Shown here: piece after piece, positions 3,158 to 64,000 of the stretch
Layout of the letters: every line of letters starts with the position of its first letter
Numbering within the stretch: the stretch's first letter is position 1
Assembly (NCBI GenBank): GCA_964373805.1
Contig: CAYJWF010000004.1
Coordinates: 1,891-65,890, forward strand
Direction: 5' to 3'
DNA length: 64,000 nt
Source: an uncultured Planctomycetia bacterium
GTDB lineage: Bacteria > Omnitrophota > Gorgyraeia > 1-14-0-20-64-10
Position numbers and translations under genes: made by a program
The notes under the pieces: generated by a model
Seen by the model: the letters and a program-made list of their open reading frames with translations, nothing else
Database searches by the model: none
Told to the model about the DNA's origin: nothing

Positions 3158-4329
3158 CCTTGAAGCAGGACGACCGCGTAGGCGGCCATCGCCTCTTTCG
3201 CACCAATGGGACCTAAACCTTCCATCGTCCGGACCTTCACGTTCACTTGGGATTCCTTAACCTTAAGAAGCCTCGCCACGGAGCTGCGAATCGCCTCTCG
3301 ATGGGGACCTAACCGTGGCTCCTCGGTGATGACCATGAGATCGGCGTTGGAAATTTCAAGTTTCCTGGCTCGAATCAGCCGAAGCGCCTTGGCGATGAAT
3401 CGCTGGCTCGGGGCCCCTTTCCATTTGGAATCGGTATCGGGAAAGTGGCTCCCTAAGTCCCCGGCCCCTGCCGCCCCCAGCATCGCGTCGCAGAGGGCGT
3501 GGAGGAGCACGTCCGCATCGGAGTGACCCAGGAGTCCCTTCTTCGCTGGAATCTTCCTTCCCCCTAAGACGAGCGGCCGGCCCGCGATCAACCGATGAAT
3601 ATCAAACCCAATGCCTACTCGCATATCAAAAGGGGTCTGACCCCTTTTGCCTTTCATCAAGGTTTCCGCCATCAAGAGATCATCCTGAGTGGTCACCTTC
3701 AAATTCCGGGGAGAACCTTCCACGATCCGTACCTTGACCCCCATCGCCTCCACCAAGGCTGCGTCATCCGTTGCGGTAACCCGCCTGATTCTTGCCCGAT
3801 GGTGAGCCGATTCCAACAGATCCCGACGAAACACTTGAGGGGTCTGGATCGCCCAGAGGTGGTTTCGATCCAAGGTTTTGGCCACCCATCCGGCCCTGAC
3901 CTGCTTGATCGTCGGAACCACTGGGATAGCCGCCACGGCCGCTTGCGTCCGTTGGGCGGTCCGGATCGTCTCCATAAGGAGCTCCGATGGGACGAGGGGA
4001 CGAGCCCCATCGTGAACCACCACCCACTCTGCCGATGGAGGAAGCGCCTGCAATCCTCGGAAGACTGAGGCGGTCCGAGAAGCGCCTCCCGGGATGATCT
4101 GAATCACCTTCCGATAGCGGTACTTCTGGACCATCCGTTGGACCGCCGCGACATCGTCCCGATGACTGACCACAACCATCCCATCGATCGGACGAGCCTG
4201 CTCCAAGGCGCTTAAGGTCCAAGACAGCATCGGCCGTCCAGCCAACCGGACGAACGGCTTTCGGACCTTCTTCTTAAAACGTCTGCCCTCTCCAGCAGCT
4301 GGGACAATAGCGACAACCCTAGGTGCCAG
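3145..4329 (-). CDS. ispDF: bifunctional 2-C-methyl-D-erythritol 4-phosphate cytidylyltransferase / 2-C-methyl-D-erythritol 2,4-cyclodiphosphate synthase (IspDF)
   Basis: Tracked ORF starts at a TTG (4245). The same frame upstream encodes the conserved IspD N-terminus VVAIVPAAGEGRRF, right up to an in-frame TAG at 4351-4353. The C-terminal half is IspF (GHSDADVLLHAL...). No ATG/GTG/TTG lies between the TAG and the motif; the start is placed at CTG 4327-4329 by inference. Confidence 0.8.
   Translation of the reverse strand: MAPRVVAIVPAAGEGRRFKKKVRKPFVRLAGRPMLSWTLSALEQARPIDGMVVVSHRDDVAAVQRMVQKYRYRKVIQIIPGGASRTASVFRGLQALPPSAEWVVVHDGARPLVPSELLMETIRTAQRTQAAVAAIPVVPTIKQVRAGWVAKTLDRNHLWAIQTPQVFRRDLLESAHHRARIRRVTATDDAALVEAMGVKVRIVEGSPRNLKVTTQDDLLMAETLMKGKRGQTPFDMRVGIGFDIHRLIAGRPLVLGGRKIPAKKGLLGHSDADVLLHALCDAMLGAAGAGDLGSHFPDTDSKWKGAPSQRFIAKALRLIRARKLEISNADLMVITEEPRLGPHREAIRSSVARLLKVKESQVNVKVRTMEGLGPIGAKEAMAAYAVVLLQGCRS
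3628..3650. repeat. P1 palindrome inside ispDF (IspD-IspF linker)
   Basis: AAAAGGGGTCTGACCCCTTTTGCC; encodes GKRGQTPF. Confidence 0.85.
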
Positions 4330-6915: not shown

Positions 6916-7812
6916 CTAAGGAAACACGAAGTAAAAGAACGCGGTGAAGAAACAGTCGGCGGCGATGATCAGGATAAAGGAAACCACCACCGAAAAGGTG
7001 GTCGAGCGGCCCACCCCCTCAGCGCCGCCCGACGTCTCGAAACCTTCGTAACAGGCAACCGTCGCGATGATCACGCCAAAGACGACCGCCTTGAGGAGCC
7101 CCGTGAACAGATCCTTAAACCTTAAGGCGTCCCACGTCATGTTCATGTAAAGGCTGGAACCAATCCCCAGCTTGTAGACCCCCACGACGTACCCCCCCAG
7201 GATCCCCACGAGGTCCGCGTAGAGCGTCAAGATCGGCAGCATCGTCACCAGGGCCAGAAGCCGTGGGACCGCCAGATACCGGACCGGATCGGTAGCCAAG
7301 GTTTGCAGAGCGTCGATCTGCTCGGTCACCCGCATGGTCCCTACCTCGGCCGAGATGGAGGCCCCCACCCGACCGGCGATGACGAGAGCCGTGAGCACCG
7401 GCCCTAACTCCCGCACCATGGAGAGGGCAACCAAGGCGCCGATGTACAGCTCCGCCGAGATCTTTTGGAGCTGATAAGCCGTCTGAAGGGCCAACACCAT
7501 CCCGGTAAAGAGGGAGGTGAGGAAAACCAGGGGGAAGCTGGCGACCCCGACCCGCTCCATCTGGAGGAGGATGAGTTCCCATGAACGATTCCGAGCCAAC
7601 CGCTTCCAACGCCACGGGAAGGGGAGATCGACGACCCAACTCCTCCAGGGCAGCGCCAGGATCCCTCCCACCGTCTGCCAGAGGAGGACCGCGGAGCCCC
7701 CCAGGTATTCGAAGAAGGCCAGCGACCCTTCCCCTAAGCCCCCCACCAAACGGCGGGTTACCGCTTCCGCGCCTTGGCCGCTAGAATTTCTTTCGATGTT
7801 CCACCCCGACAA
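6916..7812 (-). CDS. mlaE: ABC transporter permease MlaE
   Basis: MlaE/YrbE-type multi-TM permease pattern; position in the mla cluster. Confidence 0.75.
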   Translation of the reverse strand: MSGWNIERNSSGQGAEAVTRRLVGGLGEGSLAFFEYLGGSAVLLWQTVGGILALPWRSWVVDLPFPWRWKRLARNRSWELILLQMERVGVASFPLVFLTSLFTGMVLALQTAYQLQKISAELYIGALVALSMVRELGPVLTALVIAGRVGASISAEVGTMRVTEQIDALQTLATDPVRYLAVPRLLALVTMLPILTLYADLVGILGGYVVGVYKLGIGSSLYMNMTWDALRFKDLFTGLLKAVVFGVIIATVACYEGFETSGGAEGVGRSTTFSVVVSFILIIAADCFFTAFFYFVFP

Positions 7813-17359: not shown

Positions 17360-17974
17360 TCATCTTTTAGGTCCCTTGCCTTTCACCCTAGATTCTTCAC
17401 CCTTCACTGCCTTTGCCTTTTCCTCCACGGCTCGAACCCGATCCCGAAGACGGGCCGCCTCCTCAAAGGCCTCCGCGGCGACCGCCTTCTTGAGGTTCTC
17501 CTTAAGCCGCGCCAGATCTGTCTCTTCCCCTATGCTTTTAGCGGCATCAGCAGCCCGTCCAGAAAAGTGCCGCGCATCAGCGCGGCCTTCACTTTTCTTG
17601 GCCGCCTTCGGCTGCGAAACGGAAGGACCCTTTCCCACATGTTGGGTGGAACCGTGGATCCGCTTTAACAGGGGAACCAGGTACGGCTCAAACGTCTCGT
17701 AACAGTTCCCGCAGCCAAGCCGACCAACCTTGCGAAACCCTTCGTAAGTCATTCCACACCTGGGGCAGGAAAGCTTGGTTCGCTCGGTCGACTCTCCTTT
17801 AAGCCCGAAGTCGGCGAGGCCGGCCAAAAGGCCTGCTAACCCGAACTCCTGCCCTGCCGCAGTTCCTTTCTCGTGCGCGCAGCTCTCGCAGAGATGGAGC
17901 TCGCGGGTCTGGTCGTCAATGATCTCGGTCAGATGAACCGTCGCCTCGTTTTGTCCACACAGGTCACAGGTCAC
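17360..17974 (-). CDS. mcsA: McsA, activator of protein arginine kinase (zinc-finger / UVR domain)
   Basis: CxxC pairs (CDLCG...CESC; CPRCG...CGNC) and a C-terminal UVR motif (AVAAEAFEEAARLRDRV); carries a partial R1 repeat. Confidence 0.75.
   Translation of the reverse strand: MTCDLCGQNEATVHLTEIIDDQTRELHLCESCAHEKGTAAGQEFGLAGLLAGLADFGLKGESTERTKLSCPRCGMTYEGFRKVGRLGCGNCYETFEPYLVPLLKRIHGSTQHVGKGPSVSQPKAAKKSEGRADARHFSGRAADAAKSIGEETDLARLKENLKKAVAAEAFEEAARLRDRVRAVEEKAKAVKGEESRVKGKGPKR
17533..17600. repeat. R1 repeat element, partial copy (3' half), in mcsA
   Basis: ...CCAGAAAAGTGCCGCGCATCAGCGCGGCCTTCAC; the 33-nt core is identical to the 14712 copy. Confidence 0.75.
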
Positions 17975-17984
17975 AAGCTTTCCT

Positions 17985-18012
17985 CAAAAAGGTACCAGGT
18001 ACCATTTTAAAA
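17985..18012 (-). terminator. putative rho-independent terminator of ilvE (GGTAC-CTG-GTACC hairpin plus U-run)
   Basis: Minus-strand RNA reads ...AAAAUGGUACCUGGUACCUUUUUGAG directly after the ilvE stop. Confidence 0.5.
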
Positions 18013-18906: not shown

Positions 18907-19685
18907 AGTCGGCCATCCTTTAACGAAAGCACGCGCCCGGCCATTTGGGTGAGCTCCGGCTCGTGCGTCACCACCACCAACGTTGTTCCTCGCTCCCGAT
19001 GGAACTGCTTGAGGAGCTTTAAGATCATCCGGCCGGTCTCGGAATCCAGATTCCCGGTCGGTTCATCGCAGAAAACGATCTTGGGATCGTTCATCAAGGC
19101 CCGGGCCATGGCCACCCGTTGCTGCTCGCCACCCGAGAGTTCAGCCGATCGATGCGCCGCTCGGTTCTTGAGGCCGACCTGTTCGAGGAGCCCTTGGGCC
19201 TTCTTCCAGGCGTCCCCGGAGGCGGTCCCAGAGCCATTCCCCATCCATCCCGGAAGGGCCACATTCTCCAACGCCGTCAATTCCGACACCAAGTGATAAA
19301 ACTGAAAGACAAACCCAAAGGCCCGATTCCGAATCCGAGCCCGTTCCCAATCGGAAAGGCCGAACAGCGACTTGCCTTCAAACCGCACCTCGCCTTCCGT
19401 GGGCCGATCCAATCCACCCAAAAGATGGAGCAACGTCGACTTCCCTGCTCCCGATGGGCCCACGATGACCAGGAACTCCCCGGCCTGCACGGAAAGGTTT
19501 ACCCCTTTCAGGACCTCCAGTAGGCACCGACCCGTTGGATAGGTCTTCTCCAGTCCCACCGCCTCTAACAGCACCCCCATCCTCCCTTTCCTTCTATCCG
19601 CTATCCGCTGTTTTACTCGTACCGAATCGCCTCGGCCGGCTGTTTCCGGGCCGCTACCCATGCTGGATAAAGGCAGGAGGCCCAA
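18897..19685 (-). CDS. lolD: lipoprotein-releasing ABC transporter ATP-binding protein LolD
   Basis: Walker A GPSGAGKST, LSGGEQQRVAMARAL, Walker B; real start is probably the internal Met or GTG near 19580, just after a GGGAGG Shine-Dalgarno. Confidence 0.8.
   Translation of the reverse strand: MGLLPLSSMGSGPETAGRGDSVRVKQRIADRRKGRMGVLLEAVGLEKTYPTGRCLLEVLKGVNLSVQAGEFLVIVGPSGAGKSTLLHLLGGLDRPTEGEVRFEGKSLFGLSDWERARIRNRAFGFVFQFYHLVSELTALENVALPGWMGNGSGTASGDAWKKAQGLLEQVGLKNRAAHRSAELSGGEQQRVAMARALMNDPKIVFCDEPTGNLDSETGRMILKLLKQFHRERGTTLVVVTHEPELTQMAGRVLSLKDGRLWD
19596..19618. repeat. heptamer pair (AGCGGAT x2, mRNA sense) just upstream of the lolD Shine-Dalgarno and start
   Basis: Plus strand CTATCCGCTATCCGCTG. 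Confidence 0.55.
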
Positions 19686-23732: not shown

Positions 23733-25178
23733 CGGCCTTCCTCGATGCAAAGATAGGGAATCCACCCCGGATTCAAAGCGAGGAACTGAGGAGATCCGCC
23801 GCCCGGCCGGATCGATGAAGCCGGACCACCCGGTGTTGGCGGCGCGAACCACCCAAACCCGGTTTTCAATCGCACGGAACACGCAGGCCTGCAGATGCTG
23901 AAGCGAGGCAGCCGACCGATGAAACCAGGCGTCGTTGGTGATGACCAGGAGCCACCGGGCCCCTTCCCGAACAAAACGTCGAGACAAATCTGGAAAGAGA
24001 TCCTCGAAGCAGATGAGCACACTGAAGGGAAGGACGTCGTGGGTCTTGAGTCTTGAGTCTTCAGTAAAAGGCTGCCGAAAAGTAGCCGGTTGGAAAACGG
24101 TGAATCGACTTCCGGGGGAGAAATTCCCCATTAAAACGAACCGGCGTAGCCATCCAAAAAAGAACTCGAGGGGGAGGTATTCCCCGAAAGGGACCAGATG
24201 AACCTTGTCGTAACGTTCCACGAGATTCCCTTGGGGGTTTAAAAGGCAAGCGCTGTTAAACATCCTTTCGGTACCTGATACCGTTTCAGTAACCGGTGCC
24301 CCCACCAGTAAAGGAGTGTCCGTGGCTTGCGCCAATTTCTGGAGCCGTTCGAAGATCTCGGGGTCCTCCAAGTATCCAGGTACCGCCGTCTCCGGCCAGA
24401 CGATGAGGTCCGGACGGGATTGAGCGGCTTGACCCGTTAACGTTTCGTAGCGATGCCAGATCTCCTCTTGGAAAACCTCATCCCACTTCTCGGTCTGCGG
24501 GATGTTGCCCTGCACCACCGCAACCCTGAAAGACAGTCGTGGGTCGTGGGTCGTGGGTCGCGAGTAAACCTCAAGCTGGTGAATGCGAAAGGAGCCGTAG
24601 GCCAGCGCAGCAAGCAAACAGGCGCCTGCCAACGCTATAGCGGATAGTCCTTTCCTATACGCTGTACGCTGGACGCTATACGCTAACCAAAGGGCCACGT
24701 TGACCAGAACCACGAGAAAAGAGACCCCGTAGACACCGGTCAAATCGGCGATCTGAATGACCGGAATCCAATTCCACTGGGTGTGAGCGATCAGGTTCCA
24801 TCCGAAGCCGGTCAACCAGGTGTTGCGAAGATACTCCAGAAGAACCCACGCCGCCGGCAAAGTGAGAAGGGGTGTACGGTGTACGGTGTGCGGCGTACGG
24901 CGAAGACCACTCACCATTCTCTGGGCGAGCCAGCCCCAGATCCCAAAATACAGAGCCAGGTATCCGATCAGTAAAACCGTCCCGGGAATCGTCACGTATC
25001 CCACCCACCAGATCGTCCCAGCAAAGAAGAGGATCCCGATAAGATAGCTTTGTAGGAAGGCCTTTCTTGGGGAACTTTTCTCCAGCGCAAGCAGCCAAGG
25101 CAGATAGGCCACCCACGCTAGCCACCCCAAATCAAAAGGCGGGAAACTTAAGACGAAAAGAAGGGCAGAGACAGCCAA
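23730..25178 (-). CDS. lnt: apolipoprotein N-acyltransferase
   Basis: N-terminal multi-TM region plus C-terminal CN-hydrolase domain (CFEDLFP); carries three in-frame heptamer tandem arrays and one GGTACCTGATACC palindrome. Confidence 0.85.
   Translation of the reverse strand: MAVSALLFVLSFPPFDLGWLAWVAYLPWLLALEKSSPRKAFLQSYLIGILFFAGTIWWVGYVTIPGTVLLIGYLALYFGIWGWLAQRMVSGLRRTPHTVHRTPLLTLPAAWVLLEYLRNTWLTGFGWNLIAHTQWNWIPVIQIADLTGVYGVSFLVVLVNVALWLAYSVQRTAYRKGLSAIALAGACLLAALAYGSFRIHQLEVYSRPTTHDPRLSFRVAVVQGNIPQTEKWDEVFQEEIWHRYETLTGQAAQSRPDLIVWPETAVPGYLEDPEIFERLQKLAQATDTPLLVGAPVTETVSGTERMFNSACLLNPQGNLVERYDKVHLVPFGEYLPLEFFFGWLRRFVLMGNFSPGSRFTVFQPATFRQPFTEDSRLKTHDVLPFSVLICFEDLFPDLSRRFVREGARWLLVITNDAWFHRSAASLQHLQACVFRAIENRVWVVRAANTGWSGFIDPAGRRISSVPRFESGVDSLSLHRGRP
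24036..24900. repeat. four separate heptamer tandem arrays inside lnt
   Basis: (GTCTTGA)x2.4 near 24044; (GTCGTGG)x3.4 near 24529; (AGCGTMY)x4 near 24640-24690; (GTGTACG)x4 near 24866. All are kept in frame (encode SRLKT, PTTHDPR, AYSVQRTAYRK, RTPHTVHRTP). Confidence 0.7.
24268..24284. repeat. P2 single hairpin GGTACCTGATACC inside lnt
   Basis: In frame; encodes ...ETVSGTER... Confidence 0.7.
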
Positions 25179-25618: not shown

Positions 25619-28606
25619 TCATGCACCATGACATCGTTTGTATTTCCTGCCACTGCCGCAGTAACAGGGATCGTTCCTTCCCACCTTGGGATGTTCCCGT
25701 CGAAATGGGTGGGAGCTCTCCCGCGCTTCGGCCATCGGACCGGCTCCCACTCCCGGAACAAACGGTTCGTCGGTCCCTTCACGAAACGATTCGGGGTTTA
25801 TCAACGAAGGCGTCGGAGTCGCCGCCTTCGGGGCTTCTGGATGAAGGAACTGTGTCGGCTCCAAAACCCGAGGCCTCGTCTCGGTCCGAACCGCTTGGAT
25901 CTTGAAGATAAGCTCCACGATCTCTTGTCGGACCGATTCCACCATCCGGGTGAACATCTGGTACGCCTCGTGCTGATACTCGACCAACGGATCCTGCTGG
26001 CCGTAGACCCGATAGCCGATCCCTTCCCGCAGGTGGTCCATGGCGTAGAGATGATCCTTCCACTTGGTGTCGATGACCTGAAGCATTACCCACTGCTCCA
26101 GCCGCCGCATCGACCCTTCCCCCAATACCGATTCTCGGGCCTCGTAGGCCTGATGGGCGGCGGTGAGGAGGCTCTGCGCCAGATCTTCTCTTCCTATACG
26201 TTTCTGGCTGCGCCAGCGGCCAGTCGAGGAAAGTCCCGCATCAGCGGGGCTCCCCAACTTCGCGAAGTCGGGGATCGCCACCGAAAACCGGCCTTGGATC
26301 GCCTCGGACAATCCGGAGAGATTCCACTCCTCCGGATCTTGATGAGACAGCGCATAAAGATCCAACAATCCCTGGATCGATTCCTCCACCATCTCGAGGA
26401 TCTTAGGCTTCAACTCTTTACCCTCCAAGACCGCCCGTCGCTCCCGGTAGATCACCTCCCGCTGGCGGTTCATCACGTTGTCGTACTCCAAGAGACGTTT
26501 CCGAATCTCGAAGTTGTGCGTCTCCACCCTCTTCTGGGCCGTCTCGATCGCCCTGGAGAGCCACGGGTGTTCGATCGCCTCCCCTTCGGGGATGGCCGCC
26601 TTGGTCCACTCGAGAAGTCGGTTCTCTCCGAAGATGCGGATCAAGTCGTCGTCCAGGGAAAGGTAGAATCGGCTAGAGCCAGGATCCCCTTGTCGGCCGG
26701 AGCGCCCGCGAAGCTGGTTATCGATCCGGCGGGACTCGTGCCGCTCGGTGCCGAGGACGTGCAGACCCTTCAAGCCTACCACCTGGGCATGTTCCGCCTC
26801 CACTTGGGTCTGCACCTTCGGTTCGATCTCCTTCAAAAGCTCGGCCTCGACTTCCTGTGAAAATTCAGGGACCATCTCCGCCGGAGGCGGGCCCTGCGCT
26901 TGCCCGCCCTCATTTTGGCGGGGGGACCCTCCCTGAGCGAGCTGGTCCTTTCGGCGTTTCAGCTCCGCGGCGATGAGGAATTGGGGATTCCCTCCCAAAA
27001 GGATATCGGTCCCCCGCCCCGCCATGTTGGTGGCGATGGTCACCGCCTTGAATCGCCCGGCCTGAGCGACGATCTGGGCCTCCTGCTCGTGGTATCGGGC
27101 GTTGAGGACGTGGTGCGGGATCTGGCGGCGTTTCAGAAGCTCGCTTAACCGTTCCGACTTCTCAATGGAAACGGTGCCCACCAGGACCGGCCGGCCTTCC
27201 CCGTGCAGCTGGGTGATCTCCTCTTCGATGGCTTGGAACTTTTCCCGTTCGGTCTTGTAGACCACATCCGCGTAGTTGGTTCGAATCAAAGTCCGGTTGG
27301 GGGGGACGGTGACCACCTCCAGACGATAGATCTGGTGGAACTCGGCCGCTTCGGTGGAGGCGGTGCCGGTCATCCCTGCCAGCTTATCGTACATGCGAAA
27401 GTAATTCTGGAAGGTGACCGTGGCCAAGGTCTGGTTTTCCCGTTCGATCCGAACCCCCTCCTTGGCCTCGATCGCCTGATGGAGCCCGTCCGACCAGCGA
27501 CGACCCGGCATGAGCCGGCCGGTAAATTCGTCGACGATCACCACCTGGCCGTCCTTGACCATGTAGTCGACGTCCCGCCGGTATAAGGTGTGGGCCCGGA
27601 GGGCCTGGTTGATGTGATGAACGAGGGTGATGTTGGTGTCCTCGTAGAGGTTGCCCACCTGGAGAAGCCCCTCGGCCTTCTTGACACCCTCCTCGGTTAA
27701 GATCGCCGAGTGGGCCTTCTCATCCACGGAGTAGTCCGCGCCCTTCGCCAGTTTCGGAACGATCCGATCGATCTTGAAATAAAGCTCGGTCGACTCCTCA
27801 GCCGGCCCGGAGATGATGAGGGGCGTTCTCGCCTCATCGATCAAGATCGAGTCGACCTCATCCACGATGGAATACGACAATCCCCTCTGGACGCATTCCT
27901 CCACGGAAACCACCATGTTGTCCCGAAGATAATCAAAGCCGAACTCGTTGTTCGTCCCGTAGGTGACGTCGCATGCGTAAGCGGCCTTACGATCCGAGGC
28001 ACCCATCTCGTGTTGAATCGCCCCGACGGTTAACCCTAAGCTTTCGTAGATCGGTCCCATCCAGTTCCGATCCCGTTTGGCGAGGTAGTCGTTCACCGTC
28101 ACCAGATGGACTCCGCGCCCCAAGAGGCCGTTTAAAAAGACGGCCAGGGTGGCCACCAGGGTCTTGCCCTCACCGGTAGCCATCTCGGCAATCTTTCCCT
28201 GATGGAGAACCATTCCTCCGATCAGCTGCACGTCGAAATGGCGCATGTTCACCGTCCGACGGGCCGCCTCGCGAACCAAGGCGAAGGCCTCTGGGAGAAT
28301 CTCCTCCATCGCCCGATTCTCGATCTTTAAGCGACGCTTCCGTTCCCCCTTCAGTGCGTCTTCGTCGTTGGGATCGATGGAATCGCCCAGTGGGACGGTG
28401 CCATCGGAATCGATTCCGCCTCCGAGTTGTGCGATCCGGGCCTTCAGACGTTGACGCAACGCCTCGGCCTTTTCCTTTAATTGGGAATCGCTTACATCCT
28501 TCACCGTCGGCTCCAGGGCGCTGATCCTTGCCACAACAGGCATCAGCCGCTTCAAGAACCGCTCGTTCTGCGAGCCGACCAGTTTATTGAGGAACCAGTT
28601 CAACAT
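25619..28606 (-). CDS. secA: preprotein translocase ATPase SecA
   Basis: DEAD-like motor motifs and C-terminal zinc-binding [14 protein letters not shown]; 995 aa; carries an in-frame R1 repeat in a variable C-terminal region. Confidence 0.95.
26196..26265. repeat. R1 repeat element (RPE-like), copy in secA
   Basis: CTATACGTTTCTGGCTGCGCCAGCGGCCAGTCGAGGAAAGTCCCGCATCAGCGGGG...; same element at 8733-8800, 14712-14800 and partially at 17533-17600. Confidence 0.8.
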
Positions 28607-28640
28607 GAGCGTATAGCGGATAGCGTAGAGCGTATAGGAT
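28607..28640. repeat. heptamer tandem array (CGCTATA-like x4) immediately upstream of the secA start codon
   Basis: Plus strand GCGTATAGCGGATAGCGTAGAGCGTATAGG; mRNA sense CCUAUA CGCUCUA CGCUAUC CGCUAUA CGCUC-AUG; no obvious Shine-Dalgarno. Confidence 0.7.
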
Positions 28641-28976
28641 GAAGCATTCGATACAGCATACCGCCAACCTCCCTCATCAAGTCTTCAATAAAAGTACTCT
28701 TCTGGCTAAAGCCTAAATCGGTTGACAGGAGATACTGGGTCTCTAACTCGCATAGGGAACTGTAAGCAATGGACAAAAACTGTTTGTACTCTTTATTGGA
28801 TTGCCGCCCGTACCCTCAGCGACATTCGATGGAATGGCTACCGCTGACCTTCTCATCTGTTGCAATAAACCGTATTTCTCATCTTGAGGAAAGCCGTTGG
28901 TCAACTTATACAGCTCGATCACCAACCGATAAGACTTCTGCCACACGATCAAGTCCTTAAAGCTTTTAGTCTTCAC
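28620..28976 (-). pseudogene. four-helix-bundle protein (TIGR02436-like), frameshifted
   Basis: ORF 28743..28976 encodes the N-terminal two helices (WQKSYRLVIELYKLTNGFPQDEKYGLLQQMRRSAVAIPSNVAEG) and stops early. The expected C-terminal half (LETQYLLSTDLGF...MLYRML) is readable immediately downstream in another frame. Confidence 0.5.
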
Positions 28977-28989
28977 TATACGCCATCCG

Positions 28990-30064
28990 CTATCTCTTCT
29001 GGGCTTTCCACCGAAGATACGCGTCTAAAAATAGGTCCAGCTCCTCGCCGGCTAAGACCCCTTGCGTCTTGCCGGTCTCCACTCCGGTCCGGTGGTCCTT
29101 GACCATCTGGTACGGATGAAGCACGTACGATCGGATCTGTGAGCCCCATTCGATCTTTTGCTTCTCGGCGTACTGCTTGGCCAGGGCCTCTTCCCGAATC
29201 TTTCGCTCCAGCTCGCACAGCCGAGCGCGAAGGACCTTCATCGCGAAGGCCTTGTTCTTGTGCTGGGACCGTTCGTTTTGGCACTGGACCACGATGCCGG
29301 TCGGCAGGTGGGTGATCCGCACGGCGGAATCGGTGGTGTTCACCCCCTGTCCGCCGGGTCCGCTGGCTCGGTAGACATCGATCCGAAGATCCTTCTCCGG
29401 CAGATCGATCGGAAGGTCGTCCGCCACCTCCGGGATCACATCCACCGCGGCGAAAGAGGTGTGCCGCCTCTTGTTGGCATCGAACGGCGAGATCCGAACC
29501 AGGCGATGGACCCCGTTTTCTCCTTGAAGAAGACCAAAGGCGTAATCTCCCCGGAGGAGGAGCGTCACCGATTTGATCCCCGCCTCTTCCCCCACCAGAT
29601 AATCCAGCACCTCGGTCTCGAACCCTTTGGTCTGGGCCCATCGGCTGTACATCCGAAACAGCATCGAGACCCAGTCGCACGACTCCGTTCCGCCCGCGCC
29701 GGCGGTAATGGAGAGGATCCCGTTGTTGGCGTCGGACTCTCCTCGGAACAGGGTGCGTCGCTCGAGAAGGGCAACCTCTTTTCCTAAACTTGTGAGGGAT
29801 CGCTTGAGATCGGCTTGTGCCGCGGTGTCGTGCTCATCGATGAGGGGGGCCAATTCCTGAAGGGTCTCGGCCTCCCCCCAAGCTCTTTTCCAGTGCTCGA
29901 GGATGCCTTTGAATTTTTTAAGTTCCTGGATGGTGACCCCGGCCTTGGTTTGGGTATCCCAAAATCCGGGAGTCGCGATGGCCTGTTCGAGAACCTTTAT
30001 CCTGGACTCAACCTGGTCCAGGTCAAAGATACCTCCGCAGGTTTTGCAGGGTCTCTCGAAGGGA
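28990..30064 (-). CDS. prfB: peptide chain release factor 2, with programmed +1 frameshift
   Basis: Short 0-frame [26 protein letters not shown] ends at CTT TGA C preceded by the SD-like GGAGG (minus-strand sense, near 29982-29988). The +1 frame continues [10 protein letters not shown]... into the tracked ORF, which has the GGQ motif (GPGGQGVN). Confidence 0.9.
29982..29988 (-). promoter_or_regulatory. prfB: prfB programmed +1 ribosomal frameshift site (CUU UGA C) with upstream SD-like GGAGG
   Basis: Minus-strand sense GCGGAGGUAUCUUUGACCUGG; classic autoregulatory RF2 frameshift. Confidence 0.85.
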
Positions 30065-37201: not shown

Positions 37202-37736
37202 TGACTCGTTCCACGACCCGGCGGGAAAAGTCGGTGATCAGATCGTCCACCGCCGCCGTCTCACTCTTGGTCAAACTCCCGGAGAGAAAGTAGGTGGTAT
37301 CCCCGATGAAACTCGGCTCCTCCCACACCAAAGCCCCCTTCTTATCCCGAAGGGTGAGCGAAGCCACGAGGTTCAATCGATACTCCTCCACCGTGTTGTC
37401 GTCCGTCCGCCGGACCGGCTGCCGGGAGAAATCGATCAGCGCCCCCTCCAGGATCAGGTCCGCCTCCTCCCGTTTCGTGGTGACTCGAAGGTTCCCATCG
37501 AACAGGAATCGATCGATCAGGCCTCGCGTGGCCCGCTCTTCCAACCGGGGGAGGTTGGCCTGGTAGCTGTATCGTTCGGAGACCTCTTCGGTAAAGGGGA
37601 TCCGGTTCTCCAACGGCTCGATGTAGATTTGCCGGTAGCTGGCCGGAAGCAGCCGGGTCGTGGAGTAGCCGCACCCTGTTAAAAACAGAGGACAGAGGAC
37701 ACAGAACAGAAGACACAGAACAGCGAGGCGTCTCAT
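37188..37736 (-). CDS. lptE: LPS-assembly lipoprotein LptE
   Basis: Lipobox LTGCG, ~180 aa; position immediately upstream of holA as in proteobacteria. Confidence 0.6.
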   Translation of the reverse strand: MRRLAVLCLLFCVLCPLFLTGCGYSTTRLLPASYRQIYIEPLENRIPFTEEVSERYSYQANLPRLEERATRGLIDRFLFDGNLRVTTKREEADLILEGALIDFSRQPVRRTDDNTVEEYRLNLVASLTLRDKKGALVWEEPSFIGDTTYFLSGSLTKSETAAVDDLITDFSRRVVERVIEDW

Positions 37737-49937: not shown

Positions 49938-50008
49938 TGGGGCTGTAGCGTAAAGGGAGCGCATCTCCATGGCATGGAGGAGGTGAGGGTTCGATTCCCT
50001 CCAGCTCC
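49938..50008 (+). tRNA. tRNA-Ala (anticodon GGC)
   Basis: Cloverleaf folded by hand: acceptor GGGGCTG/CAGCTCC with G3:U70, anticodon loop ATGGCAT, T-arm GAGGG-TTCGATT-CCCTC; coordinates +/-1. Confidence 0.7.
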
Positions 50009-50029
50009 AACAATTTCCATTCAAATACT

Positions 50030-50113
50030 TGGGGATGTGCTGGAATTGGCAGACAGGGGAGTCTCAAAAACTCCTGGGCGCAAGCCCGTGGGGGTTCAAG
50101 TCCCTCCATCCCC
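50030..50113 (+). tRNA. tRNA-Leu (anticodon CAA), type II with long variable arm
   Basis: Acceptor GGGGATG/CATCCCC, D-arm CTG-GAATTGGCAGA-CAG, anticodon stem GGAGT/ACTCC with loop CTCAAAA, variable arm TGGGCGCAAGCCCGT, T-loop TTCAAGT; coordinates +/-1. Confidence 0.7.
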
Positions 50114-50151
50114 ACTCAAATTTCTCCATCCCTCATTTGGGAGGGCTCTTG

Positions 50152-63587: not shown

Positions 63588-63799
63588 TTTTTCGGTGATG
63601 ACCGGGGCTAGCTGTCTGGATTGTTCATTTCGCCATAGAAATGTCCTGTTAGTAACAGGTTACCTGCTCCCGCAGGAAAATTCAAGGCCCCACAAGCCGC
63701 AAGGAAATTTTCCTCACTTTTACCTCCCCATAGGCCATACTTGATGTGAAGACCTCGAAAAAGGCACGGCCACATTCAAGGCCACGCAAAGCCACGGAT

Positions 63800-63845
63800 C
63801 TTTTGGTGCCAGGCACCTTTTAAAGATGGGTGCCTGGCACCAAAA
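63800..63845. repeat. P2 twin hairpins GGTGCCAGGCACC + GGTGCCTGGCACC upstream of tpsA
   Basis: TTTTGGTGCCAGGCACCTTTTAAAGATGGGTGCCTGGCACCAAAAAAG. Confidence 0.8.
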
Positions 63846-64000
63846 AAGAGAGCCGGGCTGCCGAGGTGCAGAAGATTTTGCGTCACGGCAACCCGGCGTT
63901 TTTATTTTCCTGGTTTCCTTCGGCCTTTCGTAAAAGGTGAGAACGGATTAGGATGGAAGGGATAACCTTAAGATGACGATGCAGCGAGTTAATCCTTTGC

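Follow-up and report, generated by a model that had tools for sequence, protein, structure and literature searches.

In a 64,000-nucleotide stretch of DNA from an uncultured bacterium of the Omnitrophota (contig CAYJWF010000004.1, hereafter the window), secA is preceded on the minus strand by a tandem array of degenerate heptamers. This array is the 3' arm of a cassette of about 385 bp that fills the gap between prfB and secA and consists of a 5' arm, a four-helix-bundle (4HB) gene and the 3' arm. We favor, at a probability of roughly 0.6, the reading that this is a selfish S23p/PF05635 cassette of the kind found as intervening sequences (IVSs) in 23S rRNA, and that its arms base-pair in the RNA, where RNase III probably cuts them. 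The IVS-type element itself was already known; what is new is to find such an S23p cassette at the junction of two operon genes, with arms built of AGCG heptamers. From the sequences compared here, the same gene-plus-heptamer-arms design appears to recur across many bacterial phyla.

The array in front of secA is the 3' arm of a cassette

We searched the window for the heptamer motif, period-7 arrays, Rfam families and inverted partners of the arrays. Tandem Repeats Finder identifies a period-7 repeat at 28608-28637 with 4.3 copies, 82% matches and the plus-strand consensus AGCGTAT. In mRNA sense, on the minus strand, the region reads CAU CCU AUACGCU CUACGCU AUCCGCU AUACGCU C AUG, and the last of the four degenerate heptamers finishes 1 nt upstream of the secA AUG. 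The secA gene (25619..28606, minus strand) encodes 995 aa with all SecA domains present in Pfam, and the N-terminus of its product aligns with relatives from residue 1 onward. No purine-rich Shine-Dalgarno (SD) sequence was found in the 30 nt upstream of the AUG, nor between the array and the AUG. An earlier sequence-only reading of this DNA had described four CGCUAUA-like heptamers at a secA start without an SD, and these data bear that description out.

The array is not a chance pattern. With up to two mismatches allowed, the motif AGCGKATAGCGKA has 12 matches in the window against 2.68 expected, a number reached in none of 100 shuffles. Five exact period-7 arrays reach 2.3 copies or more, where 0.03 would be expected, and other periods occur at chance level. 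Exact-sequence look-ups of SecA, of the 77-aa 4HB fragment (with V or M as its start), of the prfB open reading frame (ORF) and of the upstream gene returned no record, and a search with the SecA N-terminus returned no protein identical to the window SecA.

The 384 nt between the prfB stop codon (TAG, 28992-28990) and the secA AUG hold a GTG-initiated ORF rather than a plain leader. This ORF opens a 4HB gene that is split by an apparent -1 frameshift: tblastn places its two segments in different frames, and the missing base (~28813) falls in the Glu-Gly-Tyr codons of a conserved AEGYGR motif. The frameshift may reflect either a real pseudogene or an assembly error. Once the frame is repaired, the protein scores 119.9 bits against PF05635 (cut-off 33.8) and 114.3 bits against TIGR02436 (cut-off 24), and it matches PDB entry 2gsc (XCC0516) with an E value of 6.7e-23. 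It is therefore a member of both families by score, though the reading frame at the window locus is not intact. The repaired frame reads through the 3' arm and ends at a TGA (28602-28600) that overlaps secA codons 2-3 (AUGUUGA).

The second arm lies at the other end of this gap. The two arms form an inverted match of 18-19 nt that is 84-89% complementary, and the 5' arm of the window has only ~2.5 units. The AG of the prfB TAG also supplies the first two bases of its first AGCGGAT unit. Related arrays inside lnt and at the 3' end of prfB had been pointed out in the sequence-only reading; both are real, and the one at prfB (28976-28994) forms the inverted counterpart of the array at secA. An Rfam search found no family at the prfB-secA locus and no rRNA anywhere in the window.

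Heptamer arms are conserved features of the gene family

The cassette was compared with 80 metagenomic loci that encode homologues of the 4HB protein at 56-77% identity. In nearly all of them the gene is preceded by (AGCGNNN)n and followed by (NNNCGCT)n. Among 71 3' arms and 71 5' arms scored for chains of AGCG-type units, the longest in-phase chain was exactly four units in 39 of the former and 21 of the latter, four being the commonest number per arm. The 3' arm follows in a fixed register directly after the last conserved ...NP/HP codons. Its family consensus is ATACGCT AAACGCT GTACGCT ATACGCT, and the window has ATACGCT CTACGCT ATCCGCT ATACGCT after CAT CCT. The window cassette thus has both the arm pattern and the 3'-arm register that define this AGCG-heptamer 4HB family.

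Within the arms, the CGCT cores are 78-89% conserved, comparable to 4HB codon positions 1 (0.85) and 2 (0.91). Positions of the variable triplet are 46-69% conserved (one reaches 81%), comparable to codon position 3 (0.62), and conservation of the 3' arm drops beyond unit 4. Arrays of at least three in-phase AGCG units were absent from a control set of 1.22 Mb of unrelated bacterial loci, compared with 120 such arrays within 120 nt of 4HB genes. Two family loci have an AGGG/CCCT core on both arms, and one has an 8-mer, so that across the family the 5' and 3' arms change together. Odd N- or C-terminal extensions, such as MAETERLAYSVERIV, occur on homologues of the 4HB protein in databases (66-78% identity) and are translated heptamers. 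If the cassette reading holds, extensions of this sort, on 4HB proteins and on the products of neighboring genes, are probably annotation artefacts of read-through into the arms.

Comparison of closely related copies delimits the element. Copies whose genes are 93-97% identical in DNA sequence have their arms in common, and the sequences diverge fully just outside the last CGCT unit; in a subfamily whose 5' arm is distal to the gene, divergence sets in just outside the first AGCG unit. Unit number varies among related copies, with five in L123, four in L106 and up to 14 in L128. Gene-less copies, in which a short loop alone separates the 5' and 3' arms, are present at two metagenomic loci (L092 and L090) and within the window's lnt gene. 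No relatives of the cassette were found on viral contigs. To judge from these boundaries, the arms are evidently the termini of a dispersed and mobile element family.

The subfamily with the distal 5' arm makes up a group of loci from an AT-rich metagenomic organism (L099-L134). Its AGCG arm stands 150-250 nt upstream of a TTG start, and the intervening DNA includes a conserved extra segment with a small hairpin (attcccgttttcacgggaat). The downstream flanks in this group contain additional heptamers of other sequence (GATACGA, TACTGGA).

The cassette occupies a junction that is empty in relatives

Two relatives have an empty site at the corresponding position. In L176, whose SecA is 67% identical to that of the window, prfB and secA overlap by 8 nt in ATGCTTAA (cATGCTTAA). 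On contig P0241 (SecA 69% identity) the upstream gene stops 1 nt short of secA. In the closest relative, L001 (SecA 78% identity), the prfB/secA junction holds an unrelated GC-rich spacer of 400 nt without an ORF. These comparisons indicate that the ancestral junction was tight, either overlapping or abutting, and translationally coupled, and that the cassette was inserted exactly there.

The spacer of L001 (2052-2453) folds far better than its shuffles (z = -3.8), and its ends pair. The prfB/secA junction may be a hotspot for structured inserts.

The arms are predicted to form a stem that loops out the 4HB gene

When a 411-nt region spanning the cassette was folded, the arms were paired in both the minimum free energy and the centroid structures (z = -2.0). 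The predicted stem comprises 15 bp (one of them G-U) plus 4 bp, with a further 3 bp at its base. The prfB UAG lies inside the stem base, and the secA AUG is unpaired, 6 nt past the main 15-bp helix. In a prfB-4HB-secA cotranscript, the arms would therefore be able to form a stem of 15-19 bp that loops out the 4HB ORF and brings the prfB stop codon adjacent to the secA AUG. By homology with the rRNA IVSs, this stem would most likely be cut by RNase III, yielding separate messages and a secA whose leader is short and devoid of an SD. Pairing of the arms in vivo, cleavage by RNase III and an effect on secA translation are what we infer from the fold and from this analogy.

A start without an SD is not exceptional in the window, because only about half of its likely genes, including lolD and lnt, have GGAG or GAGG near the candidate start. 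Across 59 distinct 3'-arm contexts, a co-oriented ORF starts within 120 nt of the arm in 50, at a median distance of 10.5 nt; in 17 of those 50 the distance is at most 5 nt, as with secA. ORFs that start 16-30 nt past the arm usually have an SD. The cassette habitually directly precedes the next gene, and the arrays come to lie close to start codons because the cassette sits in tight gene junctions.

At most family loci the 4HB gene ends in a TAA where unit 1 meets unit 2, about 20 nt before the arm finishes. It could be speculated that translational coupling is relayed from prfB to secA by way of the 4HB ORF, the stem being opened by the ribosomes. If the frameshift is real, such a relay would be broken in the window and secA must initiate without it.

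4HB genes with heptamer arrays occur in other lineages

A protein search of plasmids yielded 33 records with 4HB genes, mostly from Nostoc, Calothrix and Anabaena. In the ten records inspected in detail, the 4HB gene typically lies between the genes of an operon, as in the orders cas6-4HB-cas4 and cas10-4HB-cmr3. Cyanobacterial plasmid loci L162, L166 and L170/L171 have 4HB genes within cas operons, each with flanking heptamer arrays. A survey of cas genes records a PF05635-type family in cas loci and offers no explanation for it (PMC3936711). Cassettes of this kind probably account for such earlier 'cas-associated' reports.

The heptamers that flank 4HB genes are lineage-specific in sequence, and the two sides are mostly inverted complements of each other. 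The 5' and 3' units are AGGGAAC and CTGTTCC in Nostoc edaphicum, AAGGGAA and CTTTTCC in Geminocystis, ACAGGTG and CTGTCAC in Anabaena 90, TCAGGAG and CTCCTGA in Nostoc punctiforme, GGAGATA and TATCTCC in Picosynechococcus, and AAGGTTY and RAACCTT in Riemerella (Bacteroidota). The Anabaena plasmid pANA02 has eight period-7 arrays in 50 kb, none of them farther than 325 nt from a 4HB gene or from the avd gene of a diversity-generating retroelement (DGR). The sequence-only reading had likened the secA array to the heptameric repeats of cyanobacteria, and the comparison proved informative, cyanobacterial 4HB genes being flanked by arrays as well. On the same plasmid (Anabaena sp. 90, L171), a TTGGTAA array of 2.7 copies at 4072-4090 stands 59 nt from the DGR avd, between avd and the reverse transcriptase.

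In Azospirillum lipoferum (AZO_p2, L167), the 4HB ORF is inside 23S rRNA (Rfam large-subunit positions 874-1513), between arms of CAGAGGA/CGGAKGA and TCCGTCC/TCTGTCT heptamers. The IVS of Coxiella has an S23p ORF, a terminal stem of 28 bp and three to four tandem GACAGAT heptamers upstream of the start codon, the copy number of which differs between strains; in vitro, RNase III cleavage maps to the start of the first repeat, and the S23p protein is apparently not made (PMC4990558). The same source describes a PF05635 protein as a homopentamer and notes ORF-bearing 23S rRNA IVSs in Leptospira, Xanthomonas and Brucella (PMC4990558). In the searchable literature, heptamers flanking 4HB genes are mentioned only for this Coxiella IVS (PMC4990558); beyond that incidental mention, we found no description there of a general association between PF05635 genes and inverted heptamers.

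Other heptamer arrays in the window and in unrelated genomes

Coordinates of the cassette parts and of the other arrays discussed below are collected in Table 1. The ORF-less mini-copy inside lnt consists of an AGCG-type array (24655-24685) and a short inverted partner (24634-24648). Its in-frame translation, AYSVQRTAYRKGLSAIA, falls in a loop of Lnt whose length varies among homologues, and the hairpin predicted for the mini-copy is weak (z = -0.34). The three further lnt arrays are not of AGCG type, and each corresponds to a lineage-specific in-frame loop insertion that is missing from five homologues. All of the lnt arrays are identical in the window and in three independent Logan assemblies, and the exact Lnt sequence is also present in NCBI; the named Lnt homologues all come from Omnitrophica or Omnitrophota. 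As for lolD, the sequence-only reading had placed two AGCGGAT units before its start. The array is real, but lolD has its own SD (GGGAGGA) downstream of it, followed by a GTG start at 19574. The window's lolD/aminotransferase junction was also considered as an empty site for the metagenomic insertions upstream of class IV aminotransferase genes and was rejected; at those metagenomic loci the upstream gene is not lolD.

Table 1. Positions of the cassette parts and of further heptamer arrays in the window.
Feature	Position	Strand	Basis or sequence
3' terminal arm, four heptamers plus C	28607..28638	-	Position and sequence homologous to the 3' arm of metagenomic 4HB genes
secA start codon ATG	28604..28606	-	Pfam SecA domains; N-terminus aligns with relatives
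4HB gene (PF05635/TIGR02436, S23p-type), GTG start at 28976	28600..28976	-	Profile matches after frame repair
Frameshift site, one base missing in GAG GG(N) TAC	28812..28816	-	Homologue comparison, tblastn
5' terminal arm AUAGCGGAUGGCGUAUAG (mRNA sense)	28976..28994	-	Inverted complement of the 3' arm; runs into the 4HB GTG
prfB stop codon TAG	28990..28992	-	Inside the outer end of the 5' arm; relatives end there in ...RWKAQKR and stop
ORF-less mini-copy inside lnt	24632..24686	-	AGCGTAT AGCGTCC AGCGTAC AGCGTAT AG, gaaagga, CTATCCGCTATAGCG
Solo 5'-arm-type remnant AGCGGAT AGCGGAT AG (x2.3)	19594..19609	-	Between the lolE stop and the lolD SD
lnt array GTCTTGA	24043-24065	-	
lnt array GTCGTGG	24536-24560	-	
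lnt array GGTGTAC	24871-24900	-	

Elsewhere in the window, a lipoprotein signal peptide, MRRLAVLCLLFCVLCPLFLTGC, has its hydrophobic core encoded by a minus-strand CTGTYCT array of 5.6 copies (37685-37723), the unit of which resembles the CAGAGGA and GACAGAT arms of the Azospirillum and Coxiella IVSs. At 17958-18004, two adjacent arrays accompany a McsA-like UVR-motif gene: CACAGGT (2.6 copies) overlaps its GTG start and CxxC codons, and AGGTACC (2.1 copies) lies just upstream of its SD. No inverted partners were found in the window for the arrays that are not of AGCG type.

Clusters of tandem-heptamer arrays also occur in metagenome-assembled genomes of a Hydrogenedentota (L030) and a Pyrinomonadaceae (L034) bacterium, the latter with an inverted pair GTCAGAA/GACTTCT at 7269-7377. 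No 4HB genes were detectable near the clusters at either locus, so heptamer arrays are a broader phenomenon than the cassette. Across unrelated loci totalling 1.2 Mb, arrays of period 7 are about eight times as common as those of period 8 or 9.

Three features unconnected with the cassette were encountered in the window. A 13-nt palindrome, GGGGTCWGACCCC, occurs seven times (at 2133, 2178, 3632, 18020, 47800, 47815 and 58675) against 0.26 expected; it looks like a family of dispersed hairpins resembling repetitive extragenic palindromes and is unrelated to the heptamers. A cyclic di-GMP-I riboswitch match at 63753-63865 (plus strand) scores 36.6 bits, just above the Rfam gathering threshold of 35, and two adjacent tRNA genes lie at 49939-50009 and 50031-50114 (plus strand).

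Weighing the roles proposed for the heptamers

Several observations count against a stem cut by RNase III as the role of the arms. Duplexes of cognate arms are about as stable as those of arms from different loci (-44.9 versus -43.9 kcal/mol, p = 0.15), with no register-specific covariation. Unit by unit, covariation is weak and off-diagonal, and the loci behind the one cell that reaches z = 3.7 lack phylogenetic independence. Stability does not differ between sense and antisense duplexes (p = 0.5), so there is no sign of selection at the RNA rather than the DNA level. RNase III has no sequence requirement, and the strong conservation of the AGCG core therefore points to sequence-specific recognition by something. 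The window element lies outside rRNA, whereas the copies with documented RNase III cleavage are all rRNA copies. In Pseudanabaena, two arrays flanking a 4HB gene are direct rather than inverted, which makes a stem impossible there. Finally, the 4HB gene of the window is frameshifted, and a mechanism dependent on its translation or on its product would fail at this locus.

These points bear directly on a tentative alternative, in which the arrays are primarily protein-recognition sites: a pentameric ring of the 4HB protein, or another factor, would bind the tandem 7-nt motifs to serve regulation, mobility or maintenance of the cassette, and the inversion would reflect symmetric ends rather than a stem. 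The two proposals are compatible and differ only in the role of the heptamers. The AGCG core is invariant beside a variable triplet, and cores show the degree of conservation of non-synonymous positions, which speaks for recognition by a protein; the commonest number of four units per arm accompanies a family whose solved member is an assembly of five chains (2gsc). Furthermore, arms are interchangeable between loci, without GU/AC strand asymmetry; the heptamer sequence shifts with lineage together with the 4HB protein; and the 7-nt periodicity is kept while the heptamer sequence is not. We consider that the conserved 4-nt core, the four-unit preference and the direct arrays of Pseudanabaena fit protein recognition at least as well as a stem, and the pentameric 4HB protein is the obvious candidate reader. 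The precedent is an analogy to the ring proteins HutP and TRAP, which read periodic RNA motifs; for 4HB family members themselves, binding is putative. Against such a role, the window as well as L030 and L034 contain heptamer arrays that are distant from any 4HB gene, and arms persist although the window gene is frameshifted and the Coxiella protein is apparently not made (PMC4990558).

It is improbable that the arrays are neutral, slippage-prone debris without present function at the ends of a decaying insertion. Variation in unit number (four versus five in near-identical elements, and as many as 14) would fit this idea, as would the frameshifted gene, the solo remnant, the weakly folding mini-copy and the tendency of this genome to make heptamer arrays of many sequences, even within genes. 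However, among genes that are only 56-77% identical, conservation of the arm cores equals that of codon positions 1-2; at most loci the 3' arm has retained a constant register and a count of exactly four units; and units within an arm differ in a position-specific manner, unlike the products of recent slippage. Least probable is the meaning that the sequence-only reading gave to its otherwise accurate description, namely that heptamers at translation starts (secA, lolD and others) are operators for a host regulator or a slipped-strand phase switch. The array does abut an AUG without an SD, and arms end within 5 nt of the next start codon in those 17 of 50 other contexts. Yet the arrays travel with the 4HB gene rather than with particular host genes, the downstream genes differ by locus, the lolD array lies upstream of a normal SD and one copy is inside lnt. 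The arrays are accordingly accounted for as cassette ends, a derivative within lnt and a remnant at lolD, which leaves room for binding by a protein as such. Phase variation of secA, an essential housekeeping gene, is unlikely for further reasons: the units are non-identical (82% matched), the array is outside the secA frame and the lnt arrays are invariant in three assemblies, so that the locus does not match a phase-variable contingency locus, which has a tract of identical units in a promoter or reading frame.

A bolder extension, which we regard as doubtful, goes further. 4HB genes and heptamer arrays would together form one widespread, unrecognised class of mobile cassettes, in which the pentamer reads about four to five heptamers, one unit per subunit, and the element homes into rRNA helices as well as operon stop/start junctions. 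Pairing of the arms, together with RNase III, would render the insertion harmless, and the ORF would relay coupling in such a way that host expression comes to depend on the cassette. The class would also be the source of repeats of the short tandemly repeated repetitive (STRR) type and of the heptamer-encoded insertions in lnt.

If the reading of the window element as an IVS-type cassette is correct, the function-less '23S rRNA IVS protein' family, which genome annotations list for a broad range of bacteria, and tandem heptamer repeats may be parts of one cassette, which inhabits operon junctions as well as rRNA. It would also illustrate how an essential, translationally coupled pair such as prfB and secA can accommodate an insertion. 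What the 4HB protein does would become testable, through heptamer RNA or DNA binding, RNase III processing and translational coupling.

Relationship to known systems

The hairpin-forming miniature elements Correia/NEMIS of Neisseria lie in operon transcripts and are cleaved by RNase III. Like these elements and the REPIN/RAYT systems, the cassette has inverted ends that could form a hairpin in cotranscripts, dispersed gene-less doublets, and a gene flanked by the repeats of the doublets. REPINs have been described in PMC3116915. The cassette differs from both in that it has no sequence similarity to them and no recognisable transposase or HUH nuclease, and its ends are heptamer arrays rather than a single inverted repeat.

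The Avd protein of DGRs belongs to the same fold superfamily as the window 4HB protein, which gives a weak match to NF033474. We rejected an identification as Avd: at 25.1 bits the match falls short of the cut-off of 80, and the neighbors are prfB and secA, with no reverse transcriptase, template repeat or variable repeat. Within PF05635/TIGR02436, the family of XCC0516 (2gsc), the window protein lies far above both cut-offs and differs by a 1-nt deletion in its gene; to our knowledge, no function is known for this family.

The origin of the cyanobacterial STRR heptamers has, as far as we know, gone unexplained since 1990. These repeats likewise consist of tandem 7-nt units, lie mostly in intergenic junctions and, in the plasmids examined, are inverted around 4HB genes. 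The window array differs in its host, a member of the Omnitrophota rather than a cyanobacterium, and in its imperfect units with a conserved core and a variable triplet. The architecture is nonetheless common to cyanobacterial 4HB loci.

The closest resemblance is to the IVSs of 23S rRNA. The window cassette is inserted between two protein genes, not in helix 9, 25 or 45 of 23S rRNA, its core is AGCG, and RNase III cleavage has been demonstrated only for rRNA copies. In both settings, however, an element of ~0.4 kb has terminal inverted repeats around a PF05635 ORF, which in the window is held in the loop of the predicted stem, and tandem heptamers occupy the arms just upstream of that ORF (GACAGAT in Coxiella, CAGAGGA/CGGAKGA in Azospirillum). 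In both, the ORF has a poor or absent SD and is prone to decay, and short forms without an ORF exist. Because the arms and the S23p ORF are shared with the Azospirillum and Coxiella IVSs, we assign the window cassette to the ORF-bearing IVS type, here residing in an mRNA junction.

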